Virus record (IMG/VR): IMGVR_UViG_3300030117_005840
Coordinates: 1 to 63,321 of that record
DNA from: a virus
Taxonomy: Duplodnaviria > Caudoviricetes
DNA: 63,321 nt
Strand: one strand, 5' to 3'
Shown here: positions 1-32,234 of the stretch, piece after piece
Numbering within the stretch: position 1 is the stretch's first letter
How the letters are laid out: each line of letters starts with the position of its first letter
Notes under the pieces: generated by a model
What the model saw: the letters and a program-made list of their open reading frames with translations, nothing else
Databases searched by the model: none
Told to the model about the DNA's origin: nothing
Made by a program: the position numbers and the translations under genes

Positions 1-100
1 TTACATTGATCAATGGCATTTCCCGAAACAGATGCATCAGGTAAGTTCCTTCGCCAAAAACAAACGGCAAGACCACAATCCTCCTTTCAGGCGGCTAACG
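1..100. repeat. Terminal overlap with 63222-63321, indicating a circular or circularly permuted genome
   Basis: 1-98 is identical to 63222-63319, with one C/T mismatch at position 99. The ORF at 13 restarts at the window end. Confidence 0.93.
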
Positions 101-855
101 AAAGGCGTCTAGGTGTAGATAAGCAAAACGCGGCTAGAATGGGCATTTCACTAGATGCCTACCGCCGAGGACTGCATAAGGACTTAGGAGGAGAAGATTG
201 GGTTAACCAAATACCGGAAGGAGCAAGATATGAAGATTGGGCAAGGGGTATGGCTGACCTTAACGCTCAAATGGATGCAGAGAGAGCAGAGGAATCTAGA
301 CCACTCACCCAACAGGAGAAGGATGTAAAGGAATATAAGGATGCGATTGTGGAGTTTGAGAAAAGAAGGCTCCAAAAAGAATATAACGAACAGCAACGTG
401 CTTTAGGTCTAGGTGGTAGGAACGCTATGATGTCCAAACCTCCCGGTGGAGGCGGTTTCACAGTGGAAGATGTTGCGGACAGTGCGTTGACTGTGGCTGA
501 ATATGCCCCCACAACTGCAATTCCTGCTGGAATGATAAGAGGAGTAGTTGACCGTGACCCGCTCACAACCGGCTTTTTCGCGGCTGCTGCGGGAGGCGCA
601 TTAGCTGGTAAGACTAAGAAGGGTAAGCGATTCTTTAAGGCGGCAAAGGATTTAGCAGGTAGGGCTACACCATACTTGCCATTTCTCGGAATGCGCGGTC
701 AGCAGCTTAGGGAAATTTCGGACTTAGCGACAAAGGGAACTAGACCTGAGCCAAAGCCAAAGCCAAAGCCAACGCCAAAGCCAACGCCATACAAAGGACA
801 AGGCGTTCCTACAGGACATCTCCGTAAATATATTTATCGCGGGTTAGGTGGTTAA
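13..855 (+). CDS. Hypothetical protein with C-terminal Pro-Lys/Pro-Thr repeat, possibly virion-associated
   Basis: 280-aa ORF directly after the scaffold gene on the circle; PKPKPKPTPKPTP tail. Confidence 0.6.
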   Translation: MAFPETDASGKFLRQKQTARPQSSFQAANERRLGVDKQNAARMGISLDAYRRGLHKDLGGEDWVNQIPEGARYEDWARGMADLNAQMDAERAEESRPLTQQEKDVKEYKDAIVEFEKRRLQKEYNEQQRALGLGGRNAMMSKPPGGGGFTVEDVADSALTVAEYAPTTAIPAGMIRGVVDRDPLTTGFFAAAAGGALAGKTKKGKRFFKAAKDLAGRATPYLPFLGMRGQQLREISDLATKGTRPEPKPKPKPTPKPTPYKGQGVPTGHLRKYIYRGLGG

Positions 856-871
856 ATAGGTAAAGTAACCC

Positions 872-1159
872 ATGGCTTCATTTAAGAGATTACCTAGCGG
901 ACGTATTAAATTTAGGGGTGAGACATTTGCTGGATTTAATAAGCCTAAACGCGCACCTAAAGGAAGTAAGAAGAAATTCTTTGTCTTAGCGAAGCAAGGT
1001 GATAAAGTCCGCAAGATTGGTTTCGGTCATCGTGATTATAAAGACTTTACGCAACACAAAGACCCAAAGCGCAGGAAAAATTTCAGGGCGCGTCATAACT
1101 GCAAAACGGCCAAAGATAAACTAAGTGCCCGATATTGGGCATGCAAAGAATTATGGTAA
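872..1159 (+). CDS. Small basic viral protein (DUF5754-like)
   Basis: K..V.......FG...Y.D...HKDPKRR..FRARH and YW...LW pattern, typical of this small basic family. Confidence 0.6.
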   Translation: MASFKRLPSGRIKFRGETFAGFNKPKRAPKGSKKKFFVLAKQGDKVRKIGFGHRDYKDFTQHKDPKRRKNFRARHNCKTAKDKLSARYWACKELW

Positions 1160-1224
1160 CTACAGAACAATATAATAAAGCGAAGAAGCCAAAGCCAAAG
1201 CCAAAGCCAAAGCCTTCTTATTAG
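1153..1224 (+). CDS. Possible 23-aa basic peptide (MVTTEQYNKAKKPKPKPKPKPSY)
   Basis: Fills the gap exactly between neighbouring ORFs; encoded by GCCAAA tandem repeats. Confidence 0.35.
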   Translation: MVTTEQYNKAKKPKPKPKPKPSY

Positions 1225-1225
1225 T

Positions 1226-1435
1226 ATGAAAAAGAAAGAAGAACCTTTCAAGCCCCATGATATGTATAAAGATGGGGTTGCTGTAAAAGCTAATACTGTT
1301 GAGGAACACCTCGCATTGAAAAGTGCAGGGTATGGACATGACAAGCCGAAGAAGATAATAGCCACTATGTCTTTTAAAGAAGCCGTTAATGTGGCTAAAT
1401 CTTTTCTTGATGCAGTCGAATCACAGATGAAGTAG
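1226..1435 (+). CDS. Hypothetical protein
   Basis: 69-aa ORF in a tightly packed operon. Confidence 0.55.
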   Translation: MKKKEEPFKPHDMYKDGVAVKANTVEEHLALKSAGYGHDKPKKIIATMSFKEAVNVAKSFLDAVESQMK

Positions 1436-1436
1436 T

Positions 1437-1709
1437 ATGCCTTCTGACCACATATCAAATACAGATTATCATAACCACCTTAAATCCAGCCCACACATTA
1501 ATGGATACGGGATTAGGGAGGATTATGACGCCCTGAAAGAGCAGAAGATAGAATTACAGCATCGTTGCGCCTTATACAAAACAGGGCTACATAATGCTCT
1601 TGAGTGGTTGCAGCAACACACTGACTTGCCTGAAGGGGCAAAGGATAGCCACTTAGCTGAGAAGATGGTGTGGGATCGACTGAAAATTAATGAATCTGGA
1701 TTGGAATAA
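1437..1709 (+). CDS. Hypothetical protein
   Basis: 90-aa ORF in a packed operon. Confidence 0.55.
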   Translation: MPSDHISNTDYHNHLKSSPHINGYGIREDYDALKEQKIELQHRCALYKTGLHNALEWLQQHTDLPEGAKDSHLAEKMVWDRLKINESGLE

Positions 1710-1998
1710 AATCGTATGCAATGCCATTACTGTTCTCGTTGCTTCTGTATTTGTCGGCGCAGCCGCCCAATTATGGAGTGGTGTTCAGACTATAGATTCT
1801 AGGATAGAATCCAACCTAGTGGAGATAAAAGCCACTCAGGATGTCCTGTCTGCTCAGATAGACCGAGCTAACGGTAAACTATCTGAGATATTGCCCCTCA
1901 TCCTGATCGATGATACCTTTGAGGAACCCCAAAAAGGGGCAAAGAATCTGATCGATGAGCGAGTGCAAGACCAAATCCAGAAACAGTATCGACCCTAA
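1690..1998 (+). CDS. Membrane-anchored coiled-coil protein
   Basis: N-terminal hydrophobic segment followed by a heptad-like region. Confidence 0.55.
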   Translation: MNLDWNKIVCNAITVLVASVFVGAAAQLWSGVQTIDSRIESNLVEIKATQDVLSAQIDRANGKLSEILPLILIDDTFEEPQKGAKNLIDERVQDQIQKQYRP

Positions 1999-2284
1999 GT
2001 TCCTTATTTCTTTAGGGGTTGGGTTGGCACTACAAGCCGCCGGAATCATTTGGTGGGCGAGCAACCTGCAAAGCTCCGTCCAGCACAACGACTTTCAAAT
2101 CCAAATGATGGCGAAGGATGTGGAGAAGCATACTATCTTTGTAAGAGATTGGCCTGCTGGTAAATGGGGAAGTGGAAGCCTGCCAGATGACGTTAGGCAA
2201 AACCTGAAAATATCCATGCTGGAGTTGGATGTAGAGAAGTTAGCTGAGAAGATATCCAATGGCCATATACCTCCTAAAGACTAA
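1955..2284 (+). CDS. Membrane-anchored protein
   Basis: TM-like segment FLISLGVGLALQAAGIIWWAS. Confidence 0.55.
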   Translation: MSECKTKSRNSIDPKFLISLGVGLALQAAGIIWWASNLQSSVQHNDFQIQMMAKDVEKHTIFVRDWPAGKWGSGSLPDDVRQNLKISMLELDVEKLAEKISNGHIPPKD

Positions 2285-2514
2285 TGAACGAATCCAACAA
2301 ATCCGACCTCAATAGTATACAATGCCCTAAATGTTTCGGTAGTATTTGTATCTGCGGTGAATTACCGACAAGAAAGGCTAATGCTCATACACCCCCTAAA
2401 GACTAAATACCGTCCGGTAGCTGCCTTAACACTAACCACCAGTTTTGTGTTTAGTAGCATGATTCTTTATTTGATAGCATCCGTATTACTTATCATAAGC
2501 TCTTACCCTGATTA

Positions 2515-2811
2515 ATGTCCCATTTAAATCAAATATGGCAGCAGCTTAAAAAGAGCAGAGAAGAACGCCCCATGCGGGCGTCCGATATATTACGTAACAG
2601 ACGTAATTATTTAAAATACCAGAAACACCGCTCCCCGTATCGTGCAGAACTGAACCGTGTAGCCCGAAAGATGGGTCATTACGGGAATACCCCACCTAAC
2701 AGGGATTTGGTGCACCGTAACGGAAAGATTGTGGGTTTAGGTAACAGGCACCTGAATCGTGAGGATGGTGCCCGTAAAGCATCCCGCCAACGTCGTTGGG
2801 GAAGGTATTAA
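2515..2811 (+). CDS. Small basic protein, possibly a degenerate HNH
   Basis: Arg/Lys-rich; D-L-V-H...N-R pattern. Confidence 0.4.
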   Translation: MSHLNQIWQQLKKSREERPMRASDILRNRRNYLKYQKHRSPYRAELNRVARKMGHYGNTPPNRDLVHRNGKIVGLGNRHLNREDGARKASRQRRWGRY

Positions 2812-2819
2812 ATAGTGGC

Positions 2820-2848
2820 TTGACCTATATCAAAAGTCACTATATCTT
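2820..2848 (+). promoter_or_regulatory. Sigma70-like promoter for the capsid operon
   Basis: TTGACC-N17-TATCTT; predicted start near 2855. Confidence 0.6.
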
Positions 2849-2855
2849 ATAACAC

Positions 2856-3066
2856 GTTACAGGAATTAGGTTGCTCTAGCCGTTCAATTTAGTTCAGATT
2901 CCTGAAACAACATATCCAAGAAGTCTGTGTGGTTGCTCTAGCCCGACCTAAATAGTTCTAAGTAAACAGGCTTCACACTGAACTAGGCTATTTCCCGCCG
3001 AAGGGAGATGGTTTGCACCTTAATATAATTATTACACAGGCTGCTACGCATACGCGTAAGTAGTCT
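2856..3066 (+). ncRNA. Structured 5' leader of the capsid mRNA with two copies of GGUUGCUCUAGCC-N8/9-UAGUUC
   Basis: Motif at 2869-2895 and 2931-2958, each closed by a different outer stem; two further G-U-rich hairpins downstream. Confidence 0.6.
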
Positions 3067-3095
3067 ATCTTCAACAATCAACCATATTTAATATC

Positions 3096-4421
3096 ATGGC
3101 AGACGACTTTGAATTACCGCATAATTTTGCAACTAACGCAGCCGCCGCTGTGGATACGATCCTCGCACAAGAGGCTGGACGTATTGGCCAAGACATCCAC
3201 AAGGCAACCCTCCACACCTCACCGTGGATGGACCTTATCAAGCAGTCCACCTTCCCTGAAGGAATGGGGTATCAACTGAATACACTCATTTATGACCGTG
3301 CACTTCCTATTTCTCCGATCAATAAAGACCTTGCTGATGCTGGAATCACTGGAGTCGGTGCATCATGGTCTGCAATGGGAACTACTCACGCAACTGCACT
3401 TAACGGTTACTCTGCTGGCCAGCAAGACCAGACTCTTGCAATGGGTTCTGAAAAGGCAGCCGTCAACACTCTCGACTTCACTAAAGTCCAGAAGAACTAC
3501 AGCTTGAGCCGTTCAATTATTGAATCTCCACGCATCAACGTCGAGGAACTTCGTTATACTGCTCATCGCACTGAGCAACTCCGTGCTATCATGGATATTC
3601 TTAAAGAAGTTACCCGTAATACATGGGAAAGCCGCTACCGCGATGAGTATGGTAGGCTTTGCGACAACGTGGTGCAGTGTAAGACTGCTTCTTCCAGCAC
3701 TACCACCGGACAGGAAGCCACAGCCCTAACGGCTCTTGATGTTGACGCTTCTCCTGACGGATGCGACATCAATGCCAACATCTCTAATAAGGTGCTCGAT
3801 GATGCTTACTACAAGCTCGTTCGCGCTGGCGCAGGTGCTAATGCCTATGGCCGTGAGAATGGCCGTCCGGTATTCTCCATTGTCCTTTCGTCTGAGGCTT
3901 CTTACCAGCTTCAAACTGAGGCCGGTTTCCGCGACGATGTGCGTTATAACAATGCAAGGGTATCAGACCTTATTGCACCTCTTGGAATTGAGAAGTCCTT
4001 CAGGGGTTTCTACCATCTGATCGACGACCTTGCTCCGAGATACTCCTTCAATGGTTCCACCGACTTTCTGGAAGAAATCCAGCCTTATACGGTGGTTACT
4101 ACAGGCGGTGGTGATGTAGATAACAAGGTTATCGTTAACACGGCTTATGAATCCGCTCAGTATGAAGCTGCTTTCATTCTTGTTGATAACGTAATGGAAT
4201 CCCTCATTCCCGCTCCTGTGAGTGGCGTGAGTGGGCTGAAGTTTGATCCTGTTAACTACAAAGGTGAGTTCAAGTGGACCAACATCCCCGATGTTACACT
4301 TAACCCTGATGGAACTATTGGCTTCTTCAGAGGCATCCTTGCTTCTGCTTCCAAGCCGATCAAGACCAACTTTGGTTACGCGATCCTCTTTGACCGCACC
4401 AGCACTACTCCTGCTGCTTAA
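3096..4421 (+). CDS. Major capsid protein (putative)
   Basis: 441 aa; own promoter and leader, downstream hairpin; codon usage suggests high expression; lies between scaffold and tail genes. Confidence 0.75.
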   Translation: MADDFELPHNFATNAAAAVDTILAQEAGRIGQDIHKATLHTSPWMDLIKQSTFPEGMGYQLNTLIYDRALPISPINKDLADAGITGVGASWSAMGTTHATALNGYSAGQQDQTLAMGSEKAAVNTLDFTKVQKNYSLSRSIIESPRINVEELRYTAHRTEQLRAIMDILKEVTRNTWESRYRDEYGRLCDNVVQCKTASSSTTTGQEATALTALDVDASPDGCDINANISNKVLDDAYYKLVRAGAGANAYGRENGRPVFSIVLSSEASYQLQTEAGFRDDVRYNNARVSDLIAPLGIEKSFRGFYHLIDDLAPRYSFNGSTDFLEEIQPYTVVTTGGGDVDNKVIVNTAYESAQYEAAFILVDNVMESLIPAPVSGVSGLKFDPVNYKGEFKWTNIPDVTLNPDGTIGFFRGILASASKPIKTNFGYAILFDRTSTTPAA

Positions 4422-4427
4422 TCTAAA

Positions 4428-4456
4428 GCGGGGTTCCTCGTAAAGGGGAACCCCGC
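4428..4456 (+). terminator. GC-rich hairpin after the capsid gene (partial terminator or stabiliser)
   Basis: GCGGGGTTCCTC-GTAAA-GGGGAACCCCGC; weak U-tract. Confidence 0.6.
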
Positions 4457-4483
4457 ATAATTTAATTCAACAAGTAAAAAATT

Positions 4484-5071
4484 ATGCCAACTTTAGATGA
4501 TATAACAACGCTCCAGACCAACGCTGGAGTTGCTCCCAATGACGCATTCGCAGTCGTTGACAGAAGTTCAAGCGGGTCAAGTCGGGTCGAGCAGGTTCCA
4601 GCCGCGCTCCTTACCCAAGGGTATAGCCATGCGTGGGTAGTAAACTACGACCACCCAAACCTTACGGGGGCTGGCTCTTCCGCTACTACTGCCTTTGTTA
4701 ACTTAAAAGACTTCACTACTACTGACCACATAAGGAAAGTTAAGGTGATTGTTACTGAGGCATTTGCAGGTAGTGGAGGGACATTTACGCAGCTTGAAAT
4801 TGATGTGGGAGAGTCGGGCGACAGCGGTAAAGATAATTACGTTACCAATGCTGCTGGCAAAAGTTTATACACAATCGCAGAGAATACTGGTGGTTCACTA
4901 GCTGCACCTCCTAATGCGGTCTACGTTGAGACAGACGATGGCGGTAGCTTGCATCTTACATTGACCGCTACAGGTGGGCATAAGATTGATGTTTTGGCTG
5001 CTGGACAAGTTGTAGTCCTCGCTGACATTTTTGACCCAGCAGACTTTAAAGATATTGTTCCTCAAGTCTAA
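4484..5071 (+). CDS. Putative minor capsid or decoration protein
   Basis: Directly after the capsid gene; beta-rich composition. Confidence 0.5.
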   Translation: MPTLDDITTLQTNAGVAPNDAFAVVDRSSSGSSRVEQVPAALLTQGYSHAWVVNYDHPNLTGAGSSATTAFVNLKDFTTTDHIRKVKVIVTEAFAGSGGTFTQLEIDVGESGDSGKDNYVTNAAGKSLYTIAENTGGSLAAPPNAVYVETDDGGSLHLTLTATGGHKIDVLAAGQVVVLADIFDPADFKDIVPQV

Positions 5072-5093
5072 TCAGTAACAATCCATAATTCAC

Positions 5094-5145
5094 AAGAATC
5101 CCCGATCCTCTAACACTAGAGAGGGGATCGGGGTTCTTTATTTAT
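5094..5145 (+). terminator. Rho-independent terminator
   Basis: AAGAATCCCCGATCCTCT...AGGGGATCGGGGTTCTT followed by a T-rich run. Confidence 0.65.
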
Positions 5146-5159
5146 AACCATTTGATACA

Positions 5160-5636
5160 ATGCCAAGAGTAGGAGACAAAGAATTTCCATACACCGAAGA
5201 GGGAATGGCCGCTGCTGAAGCAGAAGCCGCCACGATGGAGCAACCCGCAATGGACGAAGCCGCCATGCTTGAACAGTTGCTGAACGAATTACCAACCGAA
5301 GTGCCTGATGAAGAGGGCGCATTGGAAGAGGCAATGGCCGAAGCTGAGCCGGAGGCTGAGATGGAGCTGCCTGAAGACATGCCCGAAGAGGAAACCGTTA
5401 TGCAGATATTTGAAGAAGTATTTGGTAATGCGTTTGATGATAGCTCTCCCGAAGATATCCAAAAACTGGAGTTTATTCTTATGGAGCTGGCATCTGACCC
5501 TGAACTGGTCGCTGGCCTTTCTTCCGGCGAAATCAGTATCTCAGAGTTTGCAATTCAGTTATATCGTAAAATGTCAGGAGAAGGCGAAGCCGAACCTGCA
5601 CAAGCTACTGCTGAGGAACCGATGCCCATGGGCTAA
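5160..5636 (+). CDS. Highly acidic hypothetical protein
   Basis: 158 aa, very Glu-rich; starts MPRVGDKEFPYT. Confidence 0.6.
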   Translation: MPRVGDKEFPYTEEGMAAAEAEAATMEQPAMDEAAMLEQLLNELPTEVPDEEGALEEAMAEAEPEAEMELPEDMPEEETVMQIFEEVFGNAFDDSSPEDIQKLEFILMELASDPELVAGLSSGEISISEFAIQLYRKMSGEGEAEPAQATAEEPMPMG

Positions 5637-5644
5637 TAAAGCAT

Positions 5645-6127
5645 ATGGGATACACAATAAGTGGGGAAGGACACACCACCCGATTTAGTGACGCAGCCCG
5701 TAAAAAGGCTGCCGAAACCGCTGAGTTCTTCGCTAAAGCGCGAGATAAACGACGCGCCGATGAATTGGCAGGGACAGCAATGACTCCCGCTCCTATCGGG
5801 AATGCAGCAGCCTCCATTGCAGAACAGAATAAGAAGATGGGTATACAAGACCCTGCACAAGCTGGAGGCGCAGCTCAGGCTGTTCCGCAAAACCAGCCCC
5901 CGATACAGGGCGCAGGACAGCCTCCTGTTGGAGCACCGCGTGGACGAGGAGCTACAGATGCTCCCTTTTCTAAAGCATACGTAGAAGGACAGGCAGCAAC
6001 CCAAAAGTTTTTTAATAACGCTAATACCAACCGGCAAAACCGGATGGCTAAAGAAGCAGAACAAAAACAAAAAAGTTCGGTAAGATTAGCAGACATGATG
6101 AGAAGAATCTCTCAGATAAATAGGTAA
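5645..6127 (+). CDS. Hypothetical protein (Ala/Gln-rich)
   Basis: 160-aa ORF. Confidence 0.55.
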   Translation: MGYTISGEGHTTRFSDAARKKAAETAEFFAKARDKRRADELAGTAMTPAPIGNAAASIAEQNKKMGIQDPAQAGGAAQAVPQNQPPIQGAGQPPVGAPRGRGATDAPFSKAYVEGQAATQKFFNNANTNRQNRMAKEAEQKQKSSVRLADMMRRISQINR

Positions 6128-6174
6128 GCCTTACTGGACATTCCCTCTACCGCACTTAAATTTAAAAACACGTT

Positions 6175-6762
6175 ATGAACCTTAGTTCAATCAGACTAAA
6201 GCAGACTTTATCAGCCCGTGTATCTTCAACGGGATTGCAAAGCTCCTTCCCCATAGGAGGAACCCTTAATCCCACGCTGACGACCACGAATGCTGATATA
6301 GCCTACGGGTTTTCTATGAAGAGTGGGCATGCAAATAATTCAGTCAAATGGACGTTGGATTCACATAAGTTAGAGTTTTCATCTGGTGGTGCTGATGTTA
6401 ATACCGGACTTACCTGCACCGAGACTGTAGGAGCTTACAATGCTAGTGTGGGAGAGGACGGAACAGCAATAGTAGATGTAAATGGTGATGCCATCCCTTC
6501 AGCAGAATGCGGTTTAGCTATTTATTACGAAATACCATCCGATACAGCTAATGGAGCTTGGGTCAAGGCAGCAGCTAGTTCAGAGGAATTCAGCACAGTT
6601 AAATTAGTAGGGACAGCCTCAGTTGAGGAAGAACAGATAGGCGTTAGGTCTGCTTTACTAGTCCCTCGTCAGAATTGCGTTTCTGACTACATCACATTTA
6701 CCTTTAGTGCCAGCGGCGTAAGAATCAACGTCGTATACCTAGCTAAAACCATCTTCACCTAA
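6175..6762 (+). CDS. Putative virion structural protein
   Basis: Ser/Thr/Gly beta-rich, within the structural block. Confidence 0.5.
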   Translation: MNLSSIRLKQTLSARVSSTGLQSSFPIGGTLNPTLTTTNADIAYGFSMKSGHANNSVKWTLDSHKLEFSSGGADVNTGLTCTETVGAYNASVGEDGTAIVDVNGDAIPSAECGLAIYYEIPSDTANGAWVKAAASSEEFSTVKLVGTASVEEEQIGVRSALLVPRQNCVSDYITFTFSASGVRINVVYLAKTIFT

Positions 6763-6769
6763 TAACTTC

Positions 6770-8239
6770 ATGCCTGTTTCGTCTAATAGAAGGCAACGGG
6801 TTATTAATTTTGCAACGCCCAAGGTTGCAGACTTGGTTATCATAGAGGTTGTCGATGCCAGTAAGAATGTAAGTTCTGCTGACGCAGCCGATAACACGGC
6901 CTACGGAACCGCGCATCCTGACACAACCAAGTTTCCCGACTTCAAGTTGGCGCATATAAAAAATGCCGATGACGATCAAGGCCAGTTTCAGTATTGGTAT
7001 TACGTAAAAGACCGAGCCAAGCAGGACGAGTATAATTGGGAGTATCAGGCGGCAGGAGCCAACAACCCCCACTATGATACGGTTATCCGAACATACATAA
7101 CTCCACGTCCTCTTGATGGTGTAGCTGGCGCGTTTGATGACGTAGATGATCCTGAGATCACGTCTGAGATGCCAGTAACGACAAGTGACCCTTTCGAGGA
7201 GGACGACGATTACATTCTTTTTGAGAAAAAGCAGACCCGATCTGGGGATGAGTTCTTGGATTCCTTGTATGTGGTCGAGCAGCATGTTTATGTCAAGCGC
7301 GTCCCTATGTGGCGCGTAGATGCTGACCCCCAATTCGCGGATTATGATGCGTTGATTTCCAAGGAGACTCTTTGGTATGTGGGCGAAACTCCAAAGGCTA
7401 CACGTAAATTTGAAGAAGACCCTGATGGAGATACAGGTCTAGAAACATCCGCACTTTTCGCGGACGGAGATGCGATTATAGATGTCCATTCTGATTTCGT
7501 GTCGGATGATGAGTCGAGTGGTGCAGAAACTTCTACGACTACGAATTTTTGGGGCGTAGACCAGCACGGTATACTGCGCGAGGGTAAGCAATTAACAGAT
7601 AACTGGTATGCTATAATAGAGAAGCAAGTTATAGGCAAGGTAGGTAAGATATCTGAAGTATTTACGTATCAGTCATATTCTTGGCCCGCCGTCCTTGACG
7701 GAAGCCCCTCCGGCTCAACGGATGCCGAGAAAACTCTTGAGGAAGGTTCCGAGGAAGGGGAAAATTCAGGAGGCATCTTTATGTATACTTGGACACGCAA
7801 GGAAGGAGGAGGTGATTCAGTAGCGGTTCCTATATTTAAACGGAATGCGTGGAGCGGTCCTACCAAAGTAAAGATAGAGCGTTTCTGGAGGAACACTAAG
7901 TGGACTATAGCAACTGGCGATAAGGATGGCACTGACCATCAATTAGCCGATATAATCCCTATGCTCCCTGAACCTATAAATTTTGTCACGCCATTAACTA
8001 CAATGAGGGTAAGTCCCTCACTACACAACAGAGTCCATCTATACGCTACTACGGGAACGGATCATCCTAAATGGGAGCTTGCAGGCGCATCATTCACATA
8101 TGACCGGACAAATTACACTGATTGGCCTGACGATATTGTTATATCAGACACTCAGACGGCTCATCGCGGGGGTTATTTAAGAGAACGCATCACGGCGTTT
8201 AAGCCCCGTGCAGACGTTAATGTCCTACCCCCCTCATAA
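6770..8239 (+). CDS. Putative tail structural protein
   Basis: 489 aa, acidic and beta-rich, within the structural block. Confidence 0.5.
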   Translation: MPVSSNRRQRVINFATPKVADLVIIEVVDASKNVSSADAADNTAYGTAHPDTTKFPDFKLAHIKNADDDQGQFQYWYYVKDRAKQDEYNWEYQAAGANNPHYDTVIRTYITPRPLDGVAGAFDDVDDPEITSEMPVTTSDPFEEDDDYILFEKKQTRSGDEFLDSLYVVEQHVYVKRVPMWRVDADPQFADYDALISKETLWYVGETPKATRKFEEDPDGDTGLETSALFADGDAIIDVHSDFVSDDESSGAETSTTTNFWGVDQHGILREGKQLTDNWYAIIEKQVIGKVGKISEVFTYQSYSWPAVLDGSPSGSTDAEKTLEEGSEEGENSGGIFMYTWTRKEGGGDSVAVPIFKRNAWSGPTKVKIERFWRNTKWTIATGDKDGTDHQLADIIPMLPEPINFVTPLTTMRVSPSLHNRVHLYATTGTDHPKWELAGASFTYDRTNYTDWPDDIVISDTQTAHRGGYLRERITAFKPRADVNVLPPS

Positions 8240-8276
8240 CACCCCTTGATCTGTAACCTTCAACAGTATTACTTAG

Positions 8277-9611
8277 ATGGCAGGTAGCCCACCAGTAGAC
8301 CCTCCAGACACAGGCGCGAGCGGTTTAGGAGGAGGAAATGTAGACCCCGAACACGCGTTAATTTATACGGGTAAGTGGCCTTTTGGCGACCCCAATAACC
8401 CACGCCCTGACGCGGACTCTCCCGGCGTTACCGAGCTAGGTGTAAACTCCTCCGAAGTAGGTGAAGGAAGCATATATGACGATATGTTTCCGTTCAAGCT
8501 CCAGTGGTTCATTGACGATGACCCTGAGTCGGAAACCTATAGGCAACGTAGGCTACGCATCTATACAGGTATGCTTACCGCAATGATAAACACGTTCACT
8601 TATCATAAGAGTAAGGATACGGATACTACCTATTCAGGCAGCGTCAACGTCACTATTCAAAGCTGCACCGGCCCCATGGCCGATTCGAACTGCAATGCGA
8701 TTACACCGTATACCGGGGAAAAGGGAGCCGAAACCCTCAGCACTTTCGCAGATACTGGTGAGAAAAATGCCAGATGGATTGATGCTGACGACGATGGGTC
8801 AATGGATGACCCTCAAGAAAACCCACACATCGCGGCAGCCGCTGGTGCGCGTAACGCAGCTACAGTGACTACAACAACAGGAACCGATACGGGTAGTCCC
8901 GGCACTAACAGTCTTTCACATACCCATCAGGTCACTATACCCGCAGAGGCTGATCATTCCCACACCATAGCCGATCATTTTCACAAGGTAACGGTCCCTG
9001 CCCATTCGCATTCAATGGCCGACCACAAACACTTTACTAAGGATTTTACTGATGGATCTGCCCCTGATCTGGTAGATGTAGACCTTAGTGTAACAGCCAC
9101 CCGTTGTGATATAGAGAAGTTCCTCACAGTCGATGGACAACCTTCGATAAAGGGACCACTACAGATAGAGCCTGATGGTTTCGTAGATATTACCAGAATA
9201 AATGTGGATGGCGTAGAAGTGCCAACCGGATTTAGGGCGCAGACACTTGGACATGCGTATGGTGATGTTTATTTAACGTGGGATTTAAACACAGATAAAG
9301 ATAAACTTGATGGGGCTGCTGACGGAGTAGTAACAAACGTAAATATAGCTATGATTAACCCTAACACGACTGACGCAGGCCAGTTAACGAGGACTGATTG
9401 GGCGGCATCACGTGACCCAGATATTGGGTCTTATAAACTTCTTATAGGCACTGCATTTGACCCTGATAGTGAAGACGAGCAAGAAGCCAGTAAGGGAATT
9501 GTGCAGGTAATTTATGAAAACGTCTACTATTCACCATTAATCCTCCCTGAAATTGAGGATACATCAGGCTCTCCGTCCTGTGACTCACCCGTAACTACAA
9601 CATGGGATTAG
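8277..9611 (+). CDS. Putative tail fibre or spike with HxH metal-binding repeats
   Basis: HTH...HSH...HFH...HSH...HKH repeats, as in trimeric phage fibre tips. Confidence 0.55.
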   Translation: MAGSPPVDPPDTGASGLGGGNVDPEHALIYTGKWPFGDPNNPRPDADSPGVTELGVNSSEVGEGSIYDDMFPFKLQWFIDDDPESETYRQRRLRIYTGMLTAMINTFTYHKSKDTDTTYSGSVNVTIQSCTGPMADSNCNAITPYTGEKGAETLSTFADTGEKNARWIDADDDGSMDDPQENPHIAAAAGARNAATVTTTTGTDTGSPGTNSLSHTHQVTIPAEADHSHTIADHFHKVTVPAHSHSMADHKHFTKDFTDGSAPDLVDVDLSVTATRCDIEKFLTVDGQPSIKGPLQIEPDGFVDITRINVDGVEVPTGFRAQTLGHAYGDVYLTWDLNTDKDKLDGAADGVVTNVNIAMINPNTTDAGQLTRTDWAASRDPDIGSYKLLIGTAFDPDSEDEQEASKGIVQVIYENVYYSPLILPEIEDTSGSPSCDSPVTTTWD

Positions 9612-10391
9612 ATGCAGCCCTTAACCGAACTATTTGATAGGGTTTACGTTATAAGCTGTTCTTACCGAAAGGATCGTTTAGATGCGTTGGAGGCTAATTT
9701 TAAGCGCATGGGAGTTGCTGACTTTTCACAAGTCAGGATTTTTAAGGGAATCGACGGGAATAAGGTAGGCTCACCACCTTATTGGAAATGGGGTAGGGGT
9801 GCTTGGGGCTGTTATCAGTCCCATTGCGGAGTTATAACTGATATACTTAACTCAGAAGAGAGATGCCGAAGCGCGCTAATTTTAGAAGATGACGTGTGTT
9901 TTAACACTTCCTCCCTTGTAGAAGCCAATTACCTAATGAACCACATACCTCCTGATTGGGATCAAGTTTATTTAGGAGGACAGCATTGCAAAACGCCGGA
10001 ATTTACAGACGACCCATTGATACTGAAAGGCACTTCCATTCACAGGACTCACGCGTATGGGCTAAACGAAAAAGTATTCAAGAAGTTTTATGCTCATTTA
10101 AGTAACGCTCCTGAGTTTATACAAGAGAAGGAAACCCACGTTGACCGTCACCTAGAAGCTGCACACCAAGAAAAGAAATGGAATGTATATTGTCCTCTTA
10201 AATGGGTAGCAGGGCAGGCATCAGGTGAAAGCGATATTGCCCATATCACTACGTCTGACGGGGTCTGTAGTAAGAAGATAGATTCTATTAGAAAATATTG
10301 GTTTTTATCCGACTCAAAGGCAGGGTTAGAAGCGCATAAGGCTGATTCTTACTTTATGGGAGACAAAGCTCCTATAGTTACCCCCTTGTAA
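9612..10391 (+). CDS. Glycosyltransferase family 25-like
   Basis: YVIS...R.DR, F.GIDG, GC.QSH, LILEDD, YLG and T.AY motifs. Confidence 0.8.
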   Translation: MQPLTELFDRVYVISCSYRKDRLDALEANFKRMGVADFSQVRIFKGIDGNKVGSPPYWKWGRGAWGCYQSHCGVITDILNSEERCRSALILEDDVCFNTSSLVEANYLMNHIPPDWDQVYLGGQHCKTPEFTDDPLILKGTSIHRTHAYGLNEKVFKKFYAHLSNAPEFIQEKETHVDRHLEAAHQEKKWNVYCPLKWVAGQASGESDIAHITTSDGVCSKKIDSIRKYWFLSDSKAGLEAHKADSYFMGDKAPIVTPL

Positions 10392-10421
10392 AAACGCCCA
10401 AAACCCCTATATTAACGAGTC

Positions 10422-11159
10422 ATGCCGAAAGGACAAGTAGGAACTATTAAGAGTAAATTCAGCCAGTATCTGGATGCGGGAGCCGCTACCGATGCTGATT
10501 GGTATATTGCTCTTAATGAGGTCATGCCCCGTATATACCATATGGGCTTTTGGCGGGATATGATGACCACGCTTGAGGAACAGGATGTCAGTAAGGGCTT
10601 ATATATACTACCTGAAGACAACGCCACAACAGGGGTAGGTTATGACAGTATTCTACACGCTATCTTAGATGATAGCCCAACGGATTTATTTTCCATTTGG
10701 CATGATTACCGGATTTTTGGTGAGCCTCACACAACTGCTGCGGCTGACGTTACTTCACTATCAGTAGGCGTGTATGATGATGGTTATACCTCCTTTGATG
10801 CTTACACAAGCCCTGAGTCTAATGGAGGCAAGGGAGCCGCCATTGATCCCGCACGAAGGAGGTATAGGATAGCCCCCGTCGATTCTACCACAAAAGCCAC
10901 GTTTCTAATGAAGAGGAAATGGGTAGATGTCTCTAGTAATAGCCACTACGTATTCCTTCCTAATGACCCCTCAGTCATTAAACACGCCCTTTTAGGCAAG
11001 CTCGCTGAAGACAACGCCGATGTCCAAAGGGCTGAATACCACTGGCAGACTTGCCAGAAACTTTTAGACGCTGACCTTGATTCTTACAGGGGTGGCGCAA
11101 GACCAAGACCTAATATCGCCCCGAGCGGACCGGGAGGCACAATATTAGGTATGTATTAA
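10422..11159 (+). CDS. Putative head-tail adaptor or tail tubular protein
   Basis: Helical N- and C-termini around a beta core; position among tail genes. Confidence 0.45.
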   Translation: MPKGQVGTIKSKFSQYLDAGAATDADWYIALNEVMPRIYHMGFWRDMMTTLEEQDVSKGLYILPEDNATTGVGYDSILHAILDDSPTDLFSIWHDYRIFGEPHTTAAADVTSLSVGVYDDGYTSFDAYTSPESNGGKGAAIDPARRRYRIAPVDSTTKATFLMKRKWVDVSSNSHYVFLPNDPSVIKHALLGKLAEDNADVQRAEYHWQTCQKLLDADLDSYRGGARPRPNIAPSGPGGTILGMY

Positions 11160-11186
11160 TTTCAAACAAACAAACAATAATTAGCT

Positions 11187-11504
11187 ATGGCTACAAACAA
11201 TATTGAAAAACAATCCTTCGGTCAGGCCGGAGCAACTGCCCTTTCGGGGACTGAAACTGTCGCCGCACGATGGGCCGCACTACATAGTGGAGAGACTGTC
11301 CCAGATATATGCGCCATTGTAGCTCTTGAGGATTCGGTGCTACACGCTACGAATACGGTATGGCCAGAGCTAACAGATTCAGCAACAAAGAATCTTATAG
11401 GTGATACTAGCCCTATTACCATACCAAAAGGAGTCACAATCTACGGACAGTTCACTGCTGTTGGGCTAGATAGCGGTTCAGTCCTCTGCTACCACGCCGC
11501 CTAA
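11187..11504 (+). CDS. Small virion protein
   Basis: C-terminal IPKGVTIYGQFT.V.L.SG.V..Y pattern of small phage structural proteins. Confidence 0.5.
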   Translation: MATNNIEKQSFGQAGATALSGTETVAARWAALHSGETVPDICAIVALEDSVLHATNTVWPELTDSATKNLIGDTSPITIPKGVTIYGQFTAVGLDSGSVLCYHAA

Positions 11505-11510
11505 AGAACA

Positions 11511-12476
11511 ATGGCTCCCCGACTTGGATTAGGTGGCGGCATAACCGCTGACCCGTCAAGCACACTGTTTGGCGAACCCAACTTGTTGCTGGACGATTAT
11601 CCCGGCGCAGATATAGCTTATTCGATACGAAAGCTATCGAAGAACTATGCAGGGTATGCTATGAATGTCAGGGTTGATATAAACGATGATGGGGACACCA
11701 CACCTGACAAAACCGCCGATGTAGCTTTTGACGATGACGGCTTCGTATCTGCCAGTTCAAAGATATACAATCCGTCCTCTGGTGGTTCTGATGGGGATAC
11801 TCTTGCGACCTTTGTAGGATCAGAAAATGAAGTTTATGTGGCCACATGGTATGATCAGTCAGGAAATAGTAAAAATGCTACGGACACATCAGGTTCGCCT
11901 ACTCTCGCGAATCAACCCAAGCTGTATACTAGTAACAGTCTTATAACGGATGTCACATCAGGCACAGCGCGAGCCGCCTTGCTTTGGGATGCCGCCGATT
12001 TAATGCACTTTAGCAACTCAGGGTTTGCCCTTGGGGGCAACACCACGTTTTTTGTTTCGCGCTCCACACGGGCGGACGATTCCATTCCGTGGACATTAAG
12101 TTTTGATAACATTACCCCAGCGCATTACTTACACTTTCAACAAAACATTGAAGCCCATTTTTATTACCAGAATGGTCTTGCTGGTGCCGCTTCAGTAGCT
12201 ATGAATAACGTAGGTAACCTTGATGAAAAACGAAGGCTTTTTTCCTATTTGGCTACCACATCAGCACAAACGATTACTGCTAATGGCGTGAGCAATTCCT
12301 CTGGCTTTCCTGACGCTGGAACGTCTTCTATGTCGGGAAGTTCTGGTCTTGGAAATTCAATTGGTTACTTTGGTTACCAAGGAAAGATGCAAGAGTTCAT
12401 CCATTACGATACCGATCAAACGTCCAATAGTTCTAATATTGCATCAGACATAAACACAGCTTTGGAGGTCTACTAA
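11511..12476 (+). CDS. Putative tail or receptor-binding protein with lectin-like (LamG/ConA) fold
   Basis: AYS.RKL...Y.G, V.TWYDQSGN...AT, QP and G.MQE.I.Y motifs. Confidence 0.6.
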   Translation: MAPRLGLGGGITADPSSTLFGEPNLLLDDYPGADIAYSIRKLSKNYAGYAMNVRVDINDDGDTTPDKTADVAFDDDGFVSASSKIYNPSSGGSDGDTLATFVGSENEVYVATWYDQSGNSKNATDTSGSPTLANQPKLYTSNSLITDVTSGTARAALLWDAADLMHFSNSGFALGGNTTFFVSRSTRADDSIPWTLSFDNITPAHYLHFQQNIEAHFYYQNGLAGAASVAMNNVGNLDEKRRLFSYLATTSAQTITANGVSNSSGFPDAGTSSMSGSSGLGNSIGYFGYQGKMQEFIHYDTDQTSNSSNIASDINTALEVY

Positions 12477-12715
12477 TGAACTTTTTAGTTTTTGATACTG
12501 AGCAAGAGGCCACTACCCGTTCTGAACAAGCGGCCACTGAAAAAGGCAACCCTGATTACTCTAGAGTATGGAGCGCAACGGTTGAGCATAATGACGGGAG
12601 AGCCGCCTTACAGGTCTACGGGGACTACCTCTACCTGCTGACAGATGATGAAAAGGATGCTTTAGTCGATGAGCTACCCGCCGATTGGAACCACCCACCC
12701 AACCCGTTTGAGTAA
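12476..12715 (+). CDS. Hypothetical protein, possibly a fibre chaperone
   Basis: 79 aa, translationally coupled to the fibre-like gene. Confidence 0.45.
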   Translation: MNFLVFDTEQEATTRSEQAATEKGNPDYSRVWSATVEHNDGRAALQVYGDYLYLLTDDEKDALVDELPADWNHPPNPFE

Positions 12716-12894
12716 TGAACACCGGAGAGATCATAACCAAGGGGACTACAGGGATTGCTGGCTCAGTTGTGGCGGTTCTCTCTCCGTATCAAGAGCATAT
12801 GGAGTGGGCGATTCAAGTATTAGGTGGGCTTTTAGGAATTGCAGTGGCAGTGGTTTCGCTGTATCATCTGTTAAAGAACAAAAATAAGAAATGA
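12715..12894 (+). CDS. Holin-like membrane protein (59 aa, not in ORF track)
   Basis: MNTGEIITKGTTGIAGSVVAVLSP...VLGGLLGIAVAVVSLYHLLKNKNKK; two hydrophobic segments, basic tail, TAATG coupling. Confidence 0.6.
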   Translation: MNTGEIITKGTTGIAGSVVAVLSPYQEHMEWAIQVLGGLLGIAVAVVSLYHLLKNKNKK

Positions 12895-13055
12895 GTAAAG
12901 AAGCTATTTTAGGAATCGTAAGACACATCCTCACCTTCGGGGGAGGCTTTATGACTCAGGCCGGAATCGCATCCGACGATCAGATCACCACTGGCGTATC
13001 AGCCATTGTGACCCTCGTCGGACTCGTCTGGTCGGTGCTGAACAAGAAGAAGTGA
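12891..13055 (+). CDS. Holin-like membrane protein (54 aa, not in ORF track)
   Basis: MSKEAILGIVRHILTFGGGF...GVSAIVTLVGLVWSVLNKKK; ATGA overlap with the previous gene. Confidence 0.65.
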   Translation: MSKEAILGIVRHILTFGGGFMTQAGIASDDQITTGVSAIVTLVGLVWSVLNKKK

Positions 13056-13237
13056 CTTTCTTCCGGCTTTTAACCGCCGCTTTAGAGGCTTACATCGCTT
13101 ACGCGAAGTGGCGTCAAAGAACTTATGTCTATGAACTGGAAGATGAAATTGATACTCTTGCTGCCGATGGTAGCCCTGCTGCAAAGCTGCGCATCGAAAG
13201 GCTCTCGCAACGCCTTAAACGAGAGCGCACTCCATGA
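13052..13237 (+). CDS. Putative i-spanin (Rz-like)
   Basis: N-terminal hydrophobic helix then a helical domain; overlapped out of frame by a lipoprotein gene. Confidence 0.45.
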   Translation: MTFFRLLTAALEAYIAYAKWRQRTYVYELEDEIDTLAADGSPAAKLRIERLSQRLKRERTP

Positions 13238-13373
13238 CCCCCCAACCGTGACCTTGATTGAGGGACGGGAGTATCAGTTTGTAGAAGGTAAGCTAGTGGG
13301 GCGAAAGAACCACAAATGGCATTCCGACTACTCTTATAGACGCGCTATAGTTATAGGTAACGGAGATGAGTAA
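13125..13373 (+). CDS. Lipoprotein, putative o-spanin (Rz1-like); start may be MKLILL
   Basis: Signal peptide with lipobox LLQS-C; overlaps the preceding ORF. Confidence 0.55.
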   Translation: MSMNWKMKLILLLPMVALLQSCASKGSRNALNESALHDPPTVTLIEGREYQFVEGKLVGRKNHKWHSDYSYRRAIVIGNGDE

Positions 13374-14365
13374 TGGCCACTAAAAAAGCTCCTAGAAGTA
13401 AAAAGTGGTGGGGTGATAGGGATAGGGCGATGAGTGGCCGCGAACGCCAGCCTATTATTTCTGATAATACGGCGAGCGACTTGCCAGAAGACCCGCGTGA
13501 TTTACGTCCTTTATCCACACCCAAAGGCGATCCGTGGTTTGGAGAGGACAGGAAAAGACCTCTCGAAACAGCGGGTAATGTGTTTAATAGGAAGCCCGCA
13601 AACCCCTACTCAAGCATAGCCGCCACAGATTTCCTTGATAAATACTATGGTGATGAATTAGTTAACCAGATTAATGAAGCCCGAGTAGCTGAGAAAGAGA
13701 ATAAGGCACTCGTAGGGGAGCGTATGCAGCGCGCAACGGATATTGTTCCTGTATATAGAGATAAAGAGTTATCGGCTTCATCTAGGATAGGTGGTAGTGT
13801 GCCATTAGGACGTTACTTCTCAGGGCAGTTTAGTGACCGCAGCACCCCTACCGCTAAAAGAAAGCTACATATTGAGCTTCCGTCCCGTGTTAAAAAGGGT
13901 CAGGATGTTACTTTGGAACATGAATCAGGGCATCACCTTAATTTATTTACGCCTGAATATTACAGGAAAATATCCCCAAATCTCCCGGAAAGAGGGGAAA
14001 AAGTTGGTGGTAGAAGGATTCACGCTTTTAACCAGCCACAAGAACTAGCCGAAGCTATAGGACGTATGCAAAGGCAATGGTATGCCTATACAAAAGCTAA
14101 TCCAAAAGAATACCCGGAAGGACCGCGCCGAATGTCGGATAAGGATTTTGATAGGCTAATGAATGAGAAATACCTACCTAAAGGATTTAAGTTGCTAAAA
14201 GGCATGGATAGTAGCCATGCAGGGCATTTTATAGAGGCTCTTAGAGATTGGAAAAAAGAAAACCCCAAAAAAGGTAAGGCTCTTATAGAACAAATACGTA
14301 AGGTAAAGGACTCCTTTGTCGATACAGGGGAATCTAAGTTTTTCCCTACAGAAAACATTGCTTAA
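13373..14365 (+). CDS. Hypothetical protein with HExxH motif
   Basis: TLEHESGHH. Confidence 0.5.
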   Translation: MATKKAPRSKKWWGDRDRAMSGRERQPIISDNTASDLPEDPRDLRPLSTPKGDPWFGEDRKRPLETAGNVFNRKPANPYSSIAATDFLDKYYGDELVNQINEARVAEKENKALVGERMQRATDIVPVYRDKELSASSRIGGSVPLGRYFSGQFSDRSTPTAKRKLHIELPSRVKKGQDVTLEHESGHHLNLFTPEYYRKISPNLPERGEKVGGRRIHAFNQPQELAEAIGRMQRQWYAYTKANPKEYPEGPRRMSDKDFDRLMNEKYLPKGFKLLKGMDSSHAGHFIEALRDWKKENPKKGKALIEQIRKVKDSFVDTGESKFFPTENIA

Positions 14366-14479
14366 ATGATACTTCGTTTCATCAACACCTTAATCATCCT
14401 GCTGATAATCATCTTGGCAATAGCCTCGTTGTTCATTGTCCCATTAACCGCGATATTCTTTGGAATCGGTCCCGCGTAA

Positions 14480-15034
14480 ATGATAGCAATCTGCGTAGGC
14501 CATAGCCGACAAGGGGTTAGTGGAGCCTCCGCAGTCGATGGCACTACTGAATGGGATTATAATTGCGATTTAGCCGAGAGGATAGCTTCTAAGTTAAGGC
14601 AGGAAGTAAGGGTTTATAATACGTATGGGGGCAAAAGTTATGCGAACTCCATGCGCTGGCTATCCCGAAAACTGCAAACTGATAACGCACAGTTTGCAAT
14701 AGAGCTTCATTTTAACGCAGCTAAGCCGTCAGAAACAGGGCATGAATGGGGTTATTGGCATAATAGCGAAAAAGGAAGGCTTCTAGCGCGCTCTCTACGG
14801 GATTCTATGGAGGATTCTTTCCCTATGCACACAAGCAGGGGTATTAAATTACATAAAAAAGGCAGTAAAGGAGCCGCTTTTCTACGGCACACGCATTGCC
14901 CAGCCGTAATTGCCCAACCCTTTTTCGGGACATCTAACGAAGATTGGGAGTTAGCTACTAAGCATAAAGATGGGCTGGCGATGACTATAACAGGAGGTAT
15001 ATTACTCTATAACGAATTAGCCAGTAGATGGTGA
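14480..15034 (+). CDS. N-acetylmuramoyl-L-alanine amidase (Amidase_3 type) with atypical catalytic residue
   Basis: GH, TE and ELHFNA zinc ligands; PAVIAQPFFG where Glu is expected. Confidence 0.8.
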   Translation: MIAICVGHSRQGVSGASAVDGTTEWDYNCDLAERIASKLRQEVRVYNTYGGKSYANSMRWLSRKLQTDNAQFAIELHFNAAKPSETGHEWGYWHNSEKGRLLARSLRDSMEDSFPMHTSRGIKLHKKGSKGAAFLRHTHCPAVIAQPFFGTSNEDWELATKHKDGLAMTITGGILLYNELASRW

Positions 15035-15040
15035 GTCCCT

Positions 15041-15349
15041 ATGAATTTCCCAAAAACAGTCAAAATAGCTGGACGCAGAATACGTTTAGTTATAAAACCG
15101 TTTAGGGGAGAAGATAGGGATACATTCGGGGAATACTTCCACGATGATAAAACCATACAGATTAATGCTGGTCTTTCTGATGAAGTAGCTTTAACCACGC
15201 TCAGGCACGAAATGATGGAAGCCAGCCTGTTCATATCTGGACTAGCTTGGTCAGAGAGATATGAGCAAGAACCCATCGTCCGTTGTATGGAAGAGATTTT
15301 TTTTCCGGCATGGGAGGCATTCTTAAAAAGGATACAACGTGAGTTATGA
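15041..15349 (+). CDS. Small zincin-like phage metallopeptidase
   Basis: G.Y......I.I and TLRHEMMEA (HExxE variant) with a downstream E. Confidence 0.55.
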   Translation: MNFPKTVKIAGRRIRLVIKPFRGEDRDTFGEYFHDDKTIQINAGLSDEVALTTLRHEMMEASLFISGLAWSERYEQEPIVRCMEEIFFPAWEAFLKRIQREL

Positions 15350-16086: not shown

Positions 16087-16095
16087 CCCAAAGAC

Positions 16096-16635: not shown

Positions 16636-16636
16636 A

Positions 16637-32194: not shown

Positions 32195-32234
32195 TGAGGT
32201 AATATACCTTTTAACTTTAACAACCTAATCTGCT

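Follow-up and report, generated by a model that had tools for sequence, protein, structure and literature searches.

The leader of the major capsid protein gene in the window (the whole stretch of DNA analysed, a complete virus record of 63,321 bp from IMG/VR) contains an uncatalogued, widely conserved structured RNA. This RNA is built from two similar units, each of which is almost certainly a selected RNA structure, an H-type pseudoknot closed by an outer helix (P1). The leader RNA probably acts in cis on capsid expression. A more specific proposal, on which we are evenly poised, is that it represents a new family of cis-acting leader RNAs that serves as a docking site for a conserved factor and controls the amount of capsid protein. 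That the partner is a protein or other macromolecule rather than a metabolite is put forward somewhat more tentatively.

Architecture and covariation of the tandem units

Two copies of GGTTGCTCTAGCC can be read in the sequence of the capsid leader, at 2869-2881 and 2931-2943, and this 13-mer has exactly these two copies in the 63-kb genome. TAGTTC follows 8 nt after the first copy (2890-2895) and 9 nt after the second (2953-2958). Each copy has its own outer stem: CAGGAAT (2860-2866) pairs with ATTCCTG (2898-2904) around copy 1, and GAAGTCTGT (2920-2928) pairs with ACAGGCTTC (2966-2974), including one U.G pair, around copy 2. The composite pattern TTGCTCTAGCC-N6-12-TAGTTC matched twice in the window, compared with 0.00 matches expected from 100 shuffles, and the 13-mer with two or fewer mismatches matched five times, compared with 1.28 expected. 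The tandem motif and its coordinates, as set out in a preliminary description of this DNA, are confirmed. The motif is located 135-225 nt upstream of the 441-aa gene, just downstream of a sigma-70-like promoter, and its 3' end falls about 120 nt short of the AUG. The features of the leader and gene are as follows:

2820-2848, plus strand: sigma-70-like promoter (TTGACC at 2820-2825, 17-nt spacer, TATCTT at 2843-2848)
2860-2904, plus strand: unit 1 (match to the single-unit covariance model R1 at 2859-2905, 23 bits, E 0.023; covariation)
2860-2866 with 2898-2904, plus strand: unit 1, outer helix P1
2869-2871 with 2879-2881, plus strand: unit 1, helix P2
2872-2875, plus strand: unit 1, loop L1 (UGCU)
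2876-2878 (CUA) with 2890-2892 (UAG), plus strand: unit 1, pseudoknot helix S2
2882-2889, plus strand: unit 1, linker L3
2893-2897, plus strand: unit 1, tail UUCAG
2920-2974, plus strand: unit 2 (match to model R1 at 2921-2973, 31.3 bits, E 1.5e-4)
2920-2928 with 2966-2974, plus strand: unit 2, P1
2931-2933 with 2941-2943, plus strand: unit 2, P2
2934-2937, plus strand: unit 2, L1
2938-2940 with 2953-2955, plus strand: unit 2, S2
2944-2952, plus strand: unit 2, L3
2956-2960, plus strand: unit 2, tail UUCUA
2980-2990, plus strand: candidate switch strand GAACUAGGCUA, the 3' part of which is the 5' strand of hairpin 3a
2984-3015, plus strand: hairpin 3a (several G.U pairs; -16.8 kcal/mol, z -3.61, equalled by none of 200 shuffles)
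3038-3066, plus strand: hairpin 3b (-15.5 kcal/mol, z -4.32)
3067-3095, plus strand: pre-AUG stretch, G-poor and unstructured, without a Shine-Dalgarno sequence
3096-4421, plus strand: major capsid protein gene (441 aa; HK97 fold by AlphaFold2 and Foldseek)

Each unit comprises P1 enclosing a compact H-type pseudoknot, which is made up of P2, loop 1 ((U)GCU), S2, loop 2 (0-1 nt), an A-rich loop 3 (5-9 nt) and a UUC(U)A tail. The minimum free energy of unit 2 is -15.4 kcal/mol (z -2.04). P1 is proven by covariation. The 140 distinct units carry 95 distinct 5'-flank 10-mers, and real flank pairs had a mean duplex energy of -10.3 kcal/mol compared with -5.35 kcal/mol for swapped flanks (p 3e-51). 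In a model-based alignment, both sides changed at eight of eight P1 pairs and 91% of cells were paired, compared with 71% in shuffles (0 of 500 reached the real value) and 21-45% when slid. That alignment was fitted to the model; the flank-swap test is independent of it. The earlier reading of the outer stems as elements whose structure is kept while their sequence changes is borne out by both the flank-swap test and the covariation.

P2 is a helix of 3 bp (GGU/GCC), in which core positions 1-3 pair with positions 11-13. It is revealed by the rare variants GAGUGCUCUACUC, GGUUGCUCUAACC and GGCUGCUCUGCC, which retain pairing in the forms GAG/CUC, GGU/ACC and GGC/GCC. The P2 loop has 7 nt, UGCUCUA, and its last three bases (positions 8-10, CUA) pair with the UAG of UAGUUC to form S2. 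TAGCC and TAGTTC had previously been viewed as separate blocks awaiting a third strand; this view is superseded, as the CUA in GCUCUAGCC pairs with the UAG of UAGUUC within each unit.

In an alignment of 50 cores, S2 was paired in 148 of 150 cells (98.7%), with changes on both sides at three of three pairs (31 cells). In none of 500 shuffles did the share of paired cells, the covariation score or the tally of cells changed on both sides come up to the real value; 197 of the 500 equalled the real number of covarying pairs. Slides of -3 to +2 gave 5-31% pairing, and a slide of +3 gave 90%, over only 52 cells. The cores were picked without requiring S2 complementarity, except for locus L061, which was misaligned in this alignment and scored as unpaired, and no recognisable unit was found in L049. 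Variants of S2 include CUC/GAG and CUU/AAG (L073), CUG/CAG (L051, L054, L065 and L079), UCG/CGA (L040), UUG/CAA (L053) and CGG/CCG (L082), together with the clade-specific forms CCA/UGG (L025 clade) and CCG/CGG (L032 clade). A loosely anchored scan, in which many anchors were spurious, found 20 of 48 non-CUA units complementary, compared with a mean of 6.9 and a maximum of 13 in shuffles. Furthermore, RNAalifold independently predicted S2 and a pair between G5 and the C of UUC; the sole variant at this C is the U of L057, where a wobble pair is retained. This additional G5 pair is a possibility, and S2 may be extensible to 6 bp with a C.U/U.U internal loop.

About 21 nucleotides are near-invariant in each unit. 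GCU and UUC were invariant in 50 of 50 cores, and UUC(U)A is invariant or nearly so. The sequence of loop 3 is not conserved; many linkers contain AAAU, and linkers end in AA-N. The UUCAG form of the tail is restricted to first copies (15 of 140 units), which shows that the two copies evolve under separate selection. Two other readings of the repeated core were considered and rejected. We take GUUCUA to resemble G53-A58 of the T arm, and a T-loop or tRNA-elbow mimic was set aside on finding UUCAG with P1 starting directly after it in 15 of 140 units. Solitary CRISPR-like repeats (identical over 28-37 nt) do not fit an internal linker that varies from 5 to 9 nt and flanks that covary as a stem.

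The strand that carries the structure can be judged from its pairs. G.U outnumbered A.C in P1 (58:14), and the U.G pair of P2 is near-fixed (71 of 74 rows) where the opposite strand would have a C.A mismatch. Minus-strand folds were no better than those of shuffles (z -0.36 and -0.74), and all 95 matches to model R1 were on the gene's strand. The G.U excess, the fixed U.G pair, the poor minus-strand folds and the common orientation of the matches therefore favour the sense RNA. The duplex energies of the P1 flanks were -10.34 and -10.03 kcal/mol on the two strands (p 0.24). A 191-nt contig from a marine metatranscriptome, 94% identical to the window, spans 2856-3042, which shows presence in an RNA library only. 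The RNA run X1 consists of contigs only, with 2600-2843 uncovered and the gene patchily covered, and RNA ends and levels are not readable from contigs.

Distribution among related phages

A search with the capsid protein retrieved 80 related loci (42-98% identity). The exact 13-mer was present in 45 of the 80 leaders, in two copies in 40 of these 45, and it extended to phages with only about 50% identity in the capsid protein; a generalised form of the motif was present in 75 of the 80. A pattern scan of IMG/VR recovered 87 stretches, of which 72 have the motif twice and 15 have it once. A capsid homologue started 77-266 nt downstream in 79 of the 87, and the other 8 end too soon. Model R1 gave 95 matches in 619,675 nt, all in leaders and none elsewhere, and four near-complete related genomes had exactly two matches each, in or beside the stretches that carry the capsid gene. 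The model had no match in genome G005, and it missed the divergent single-unit clade described below. The recurrence of the motif in homologous capsid leaders, with covariation, which the preliminary description had named as a check, is borne out by the 45 of 80 loci, the 87 IMG/VR stretches and the covariation of P1 and S2.

The tandem arrangement is not universal, given that a divergent clade (L025-L048 type) has one unit with a weak P1, the loop 3 of which carries an inserted GAAA-type hairpin. In this clade (e.g., L032, about 1330-1400), a second strongly conserved domain, GAAGCU..GGCC.AUGCGCC.GUCGCC.GCUUC.GCGAC, replaces unit 2. This domain is not recognisable as a pseudoknot unit, and Rfam gave no match to it in L025 or L040. 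In L034 (about 2729-2776), as well as in L032, L035 and L043, the -35 element TTGAC of the capsid promoter is flanked by the arms of a long and perfect inverted repeat, AGCTTCGTRCAAATTTG ... CAAATTGTACGAAGCT, which could be an operator or could terminate the upstream gene. An extra small hairpin with the conserved loop GCUGYGUU lies between the units of L004 at 2839-2860 (e.g., UUGG-GCUGCGUU-CCAA). It is also seen in L005, L007, L010, L020, L021, L042, L063 and L070, and its stem covaries by eye.

A scan of bacterial genomes returned 14 stretches, 5 tandem and 9 single. The five tandem stretches are short contigs in metagenome-assembled genomes (MAGs) assigned to Opitutae (two), Verrucomicrobiales, Blastopirellula and Acidimicrobiaceae, and this binning offers at most a faint hint of the host. 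The nine single matches were rejected as true copies, as they look like chance. On our reading, seven of them lie within coding sequence, and the other two are in Wolbachia and Kitasatospora. Six of the seven are identical (in Methylophaga and a gammaproteobacterial MAG; L172, L176, L178, L180, L182 and L183) and lie on the reverse strand of the start of a conserved ORF beginning MARATARHILV..., presumably a parvulin-type isomerase, with a match length of 23 nt. The Amphibacillus match falls in an ABC-type ORF.

No known RNA family accounts for the motif. A search of Rfam 15 with positions 2400-3500 of the window at E up to 10 returned two chance snoRNA matches on the minus strand (17.1 and 13.2 bits, compared with gathering scores of 43 and 40), and four related loci (29,232 nt) gave no match at E up to 1. 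The novelty claimed at the outset stands against Rfam after this covariance-model check, and the idea that the capsid mRNA starts with a tandem structured RNA not described before is supported. In a full-text literature search, GGTTGCTCTAGCC was not found as DNA or as RNA, and keyword searches returned no description. A catalogue of 8,495 candidate virus RNAs from IMG/VR, some of them upstream of capsid genes, has been published (Fremin et al., 2023; PMC10690425). In the portion of this source that was accessible, the capsid examples are linked to domain PHA00201, whereas the capsid protein here has no Pfam or PHROG match; the motif may already be present in that catalogue without a name.

Promoter, remaining leader and gene context

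The TTGACC-17-TATCTT arrangement places the predicted transcription start at about 2855, 5 nt upstream of P1. Promoter-type matches in the window are at chance level (25 compared with 26.2 expected over 17 kb). Among 79 distinct upstream segments of relatives, TTGAC or TTGCA is kept in 76, 65 score at least 9 of 12, and the end of the -10 element lies 14-25 nt before the core in 61. From the conserved promoter and spacing, the 5' end of the transcript is predicted to coincide with the start of P1 in unit 1 or to lie immediately ahead of it. The placement of the element at a predicted transcription start was already part of the preliminary description, and promoter conservation (76 of 79) backs it.

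Downstream of the units, the G-U-rich hairpin noted earlier at about 2985-3014 is real, as judged by the fold of 2984-3015 at -16.8 kcal/mol. Hairpin 3b corresponds to a hairpin of the relatives with the 3' strand GGAGYGGUCU, and GGAG[CT]GGTCT was found in 20 of 76 leaders, compared with 0.0 expected. Hairpin 3 is duplicated in the clade of the window (AGGCUAUUUCCC.../AGGCUGCUACGC...) and is present as a single copy in most relatives. In L010 (2928-2962) and L017 (2886-2920), its 5' part (GGCCGCUUUAAGCC) resembles P2 of a unit, with GGC/GCC and a GCU-containing loop; this region could form a P2-like mini-hairpin or part of the long hairpin, and the S2 strand is absent. The pre-AUG stretch is UUAACUU-rich in many relatives.

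A built-in switch strand had been proposed at 2980-2990, where GAACTAGGCTA is the exact reverse complement of TAGCC and TAGTTC joined. The strand itself is present in the window, but it does not hold as a feature of the family: only 7 of 76 distinct leaders have GAACTA downstream of copy 2, and six of these belong to the close clade of the window, which makes the strand clade-specific. A conserved terminator was not found either, as only 12 of 76 leaders have five or more T among the first 10 nt beyond the best hairpin, and the reading of hairpin 3 as an attenuator was dropped on this count. With U tracts and the anti-strand both rare, no conserved expression platform is seen. Shine-Dalgarno-like motifs precede 2 of 36 genes checked (window GC content 46%), so the host probably initiates translation without a Shine-Dalgarno sequence.

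The 441-aa ORF matched no Pfam or PHROG family. An AlphaFold2 model built with 34 homologues (mean pLDDT 61) had its best Foldseek matches in the HK97-fold capsids of phages Moo19, N4, B2 and DEV (E 2e-8 to 7.5e-8, probability 1.0). These matches indicate that the earlier assignment of the downstream gene as capsid is right, with N4-type capsids closest, the identity coming solely from predicted structure. The leader and capsid gene had no match among 50,697 cultured-phage records (blastn, tblastn). Other genes of the genome encode a large terminase, a family-A DNA polymerase, a helicase, a PD-(D/E)XK nuclease, an amidase and a DNA methylase.

The capsid leader heads a same-strand block of structural genes of about 13 kb. 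Terminator-like sites in 1-17000 were not enriched (20 compared with 15.2 +/- 4.0 in shuffles), and none was found on the plus strand directly after the leader or the capsid gene. ARAGORN detected no tRNA or tmRNA genes in the window. Pfam and PHROG recognised no RNA-binding protein in 45 ORFs of the window and in a giant ORF scanned in three pieces. This ORF of 5,145 aa (32235-47672, plus strand) had no Pfam or PHROG family other than a weak acetyltransferase match in its middle third (E 5e-4), and it is preceded by TTTAACTTTAAC (32210-32221), which in our view resembles the T7 'epsilon' translation enhancer. Two small proteins match domains of the DUF series: DUF5754 at 872-1159 on the plus strand (E 5.5e-12) and DUF7694 at 51701-52159 on the minus strand (E 3.4e-15).

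Candidate functions and closest known systems

The 21-nt core is near-invariant while the capsid protein has fallen to about half identity, which suggests that something very specific reads the RNA. In the docking-site proposal, the tandem element would form the first 120 nt or so of the capsid mRNA, transcribed from a sigma-70 promoter of the host type. Displayed on the pseudoknot scaffold, the invariant GCU and UUC(U)A may constitute a specific binding site, and the retention of two sites would suit a dimeric or cooperatively binding partner. Binding at the 5' end could shield the mRNA from 5'-end-dependent decay, or determine how efficiently ribosomes load onto it in the absence of a Shine-Dalgarno sequence, or both. 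The partner might be a conserved phage head protein, which would provide feedback, or conserved host RNA machinery. Several observations weigh against this proposal. Genome scans recognised no RNA-binding protein, one clade has a single unit, direct translational repression is difficult to envisage so far from the AUG, and the transcription start is a prediction from sequence. In addition, the invariance of GCU and UUC(U)A alongside capsids of down to 42% identity would also fit a small ligand, or an RNA-only role in tertiary structure or catalysis.

Protein-mediated post-transcriptional control is exemplified by the operator of T4 gene 32. In the operator as in the capsid leader, a phage mRNA carries a 5'-proximal pseudoknot, between which and the AUG lies an A/U-rich tract without structure; the leader differs in its two copies, near-invariant loop bases and closing stem, and in preceding a capsid gene rather than that of a single-strand-binding protein. 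The gene 32 pseudoknot is mentioned in the part of PMC10690425 that was accessible. In the tisB mRNA of E. coli, as described in the available text of PMC7708055, a 5'-proximal pseudoknot and an upstream single-stranded region aid ribosome loading at a distance. The ribosome-binding site of tisB is sequestered, whereas the start region of the capsid leader is open and without a Shine-Dalgarno sequence; the two have no sequence relation, and the leader is tandem and highly conserved in sequence. A consensus for the ribosomal protein S1 pseudoknot was not found in the accessible part of PMC7038950.

A bolder reading, which we regard as unlikely, is that the leader RNA founds a new class of RNAs that bind a ligand, or polymerase or the ribosome, either a riboswitch-like aptamer that times or doses capsid production by a cellular signal or a put-like RNA that reprograms host machinery. 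On this reading, the class would be shared by an entire family of uncultured marine phages with N4-type capsids. Taken by itself, a tandem riboswitch, in which both pseudoknots would act as aptamers that recognise a small molecule or ion and the duplication would sharpen the gating of capsid expression, is rather doubtful. Tandem aptamers are known in several riboswitch classes, and preQ1-I riboswitches occur as tandem copies in some bacteria. The small H-type pseudoknot with an A-rich loop 3 and near-invariant unpaired bases has the topology of the smallest riboswitches, and its invariance is independent of phage clade. The preQ1-I fold (RF00522), described in the accessible part of PMC7038950, is likewise a tiny H-type pseudoknot with the order stem 1, loop 1, stem 2 and an A-rich loop 3 along stem 1. 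Such a pseudoknot was found here, with P2 and S2 covarying and linkers ending in AA-N. However, loop 2 of preQ1-I bears the ligand-reading C, whereas loop 2 of the leader unit has 0-1 nt. Furthermore, the conserved bases here are GCU and UUCUA, P1 is extra, and the gene encodes a capsid protein rather than queuosine functions. Neither the preQ1-I model nor any other Rfam riboswitch model matched at E up to 10. A classical platform is also wanting, with U-rich tails in 12 of 76 leaders, the GAACTA anti-strand in 7 of 76 and Shine-Dalgarno motifs before 2 of 36 genes, which leaves no such motif to sequester. Finally, the regulated gene is structural rather than metabolic, and the motif ends about 120 nt ahead of the AUG.

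An RNA-only role, as a stabiliser, an RNase processing signal or a small self-cleaving ribozyme without a trans factor, appears improbable. Stem-loops at the 5' terminus stabilise bacterial mRNAs, as in the ompA leader, and a role of this kind would agree with the position of unit 1 within a few nt of the predicted 5' end in most leaders and with the very large amounts of capsid protein needed. A plain hairpin would nevertheless suffice for stabilisation, which leaves the 21 near-invariant nucleotides and two covarying pseudoknots unexplained, and no known ribozyme model matches.

Processive antitermination of the put type, in which the nascent tandem RNA would bind host RNA polymerase and permit readthrough of the late operon, is quite improbable. 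In HK022, put comprises two adjacent structured modules in the nascent RNA directly downstream of a phage promoter, and closeness to a start codon is not needed. The capsid leader similarly has two modules right after a host-type promoter at the head of the 13-kb structural block; the invariance would be accounted for by a universal partner, of which RNA polymerase is an example, and proximity to the AUG would be unnecessary. However, put has two different stem-loops rather than repeated pseudoknots, and terminators that would need to be bypassed were not found enriched in 1-17000 of the window (20 compared with 15.2 +/- 4.0).

The leader RNA could also be a trans-acting decoy, an abundant transcript that titrates a host factor, e.g., a defence nuclease, in the manner of ToxI, and we give this very little weight. 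Tandem pseudoknot antitoxin RNAs of the ToxI type neutralise toxins, and this is the basis of both resemblances, namely tandem pseudoknots upstream of a protein gene and AAAU in many linkers. In the capsid leader, though, the core alone is repeated rather than the full unit, the linker sequence is not conserved and the downstream gene encodes a capsid protein. A type III antitoxin of the ToxI type, in which nearly identical repeats of the complete unit precede a gene for an endoribonuclease toxin, was rejected: the two copies have no more than the 13+6 nt core in common, with different P1 stems and linkers, and the following gene is an HK97-fold capsid gene. A DNA-level element (an operator, origin or packaging site acting through a cruciform or single-stranded DNA) would fit the similar P1 flank duplex energies on both strands (p 0.24), but it is highly improbable in view of the 58:14 ratio of G.U to A.C in P1, the near-fixed U.G pair of P2, the minus-strand folds (z -0.36 and -0.74) and the placement in gene sense downstream of a conserved promoter.

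Beyond T4 and the lambdoid phages, little is known of structured 5' leaders that regulate the structural genes of phages, and the motif described here is conserved in abundant, uncultured marine phages with N4-type capsids. The model of P1, P2 and S2 supplies compensatory mutants and a bait of 45-55 nt for the partner. If this partner is a metabolite or core host machinery, the leader would represent a new class of regulatory RNA; if it is a head protein, the leader would be a clear example of a double-stranded DNA phage controlling its capsid autogenously.
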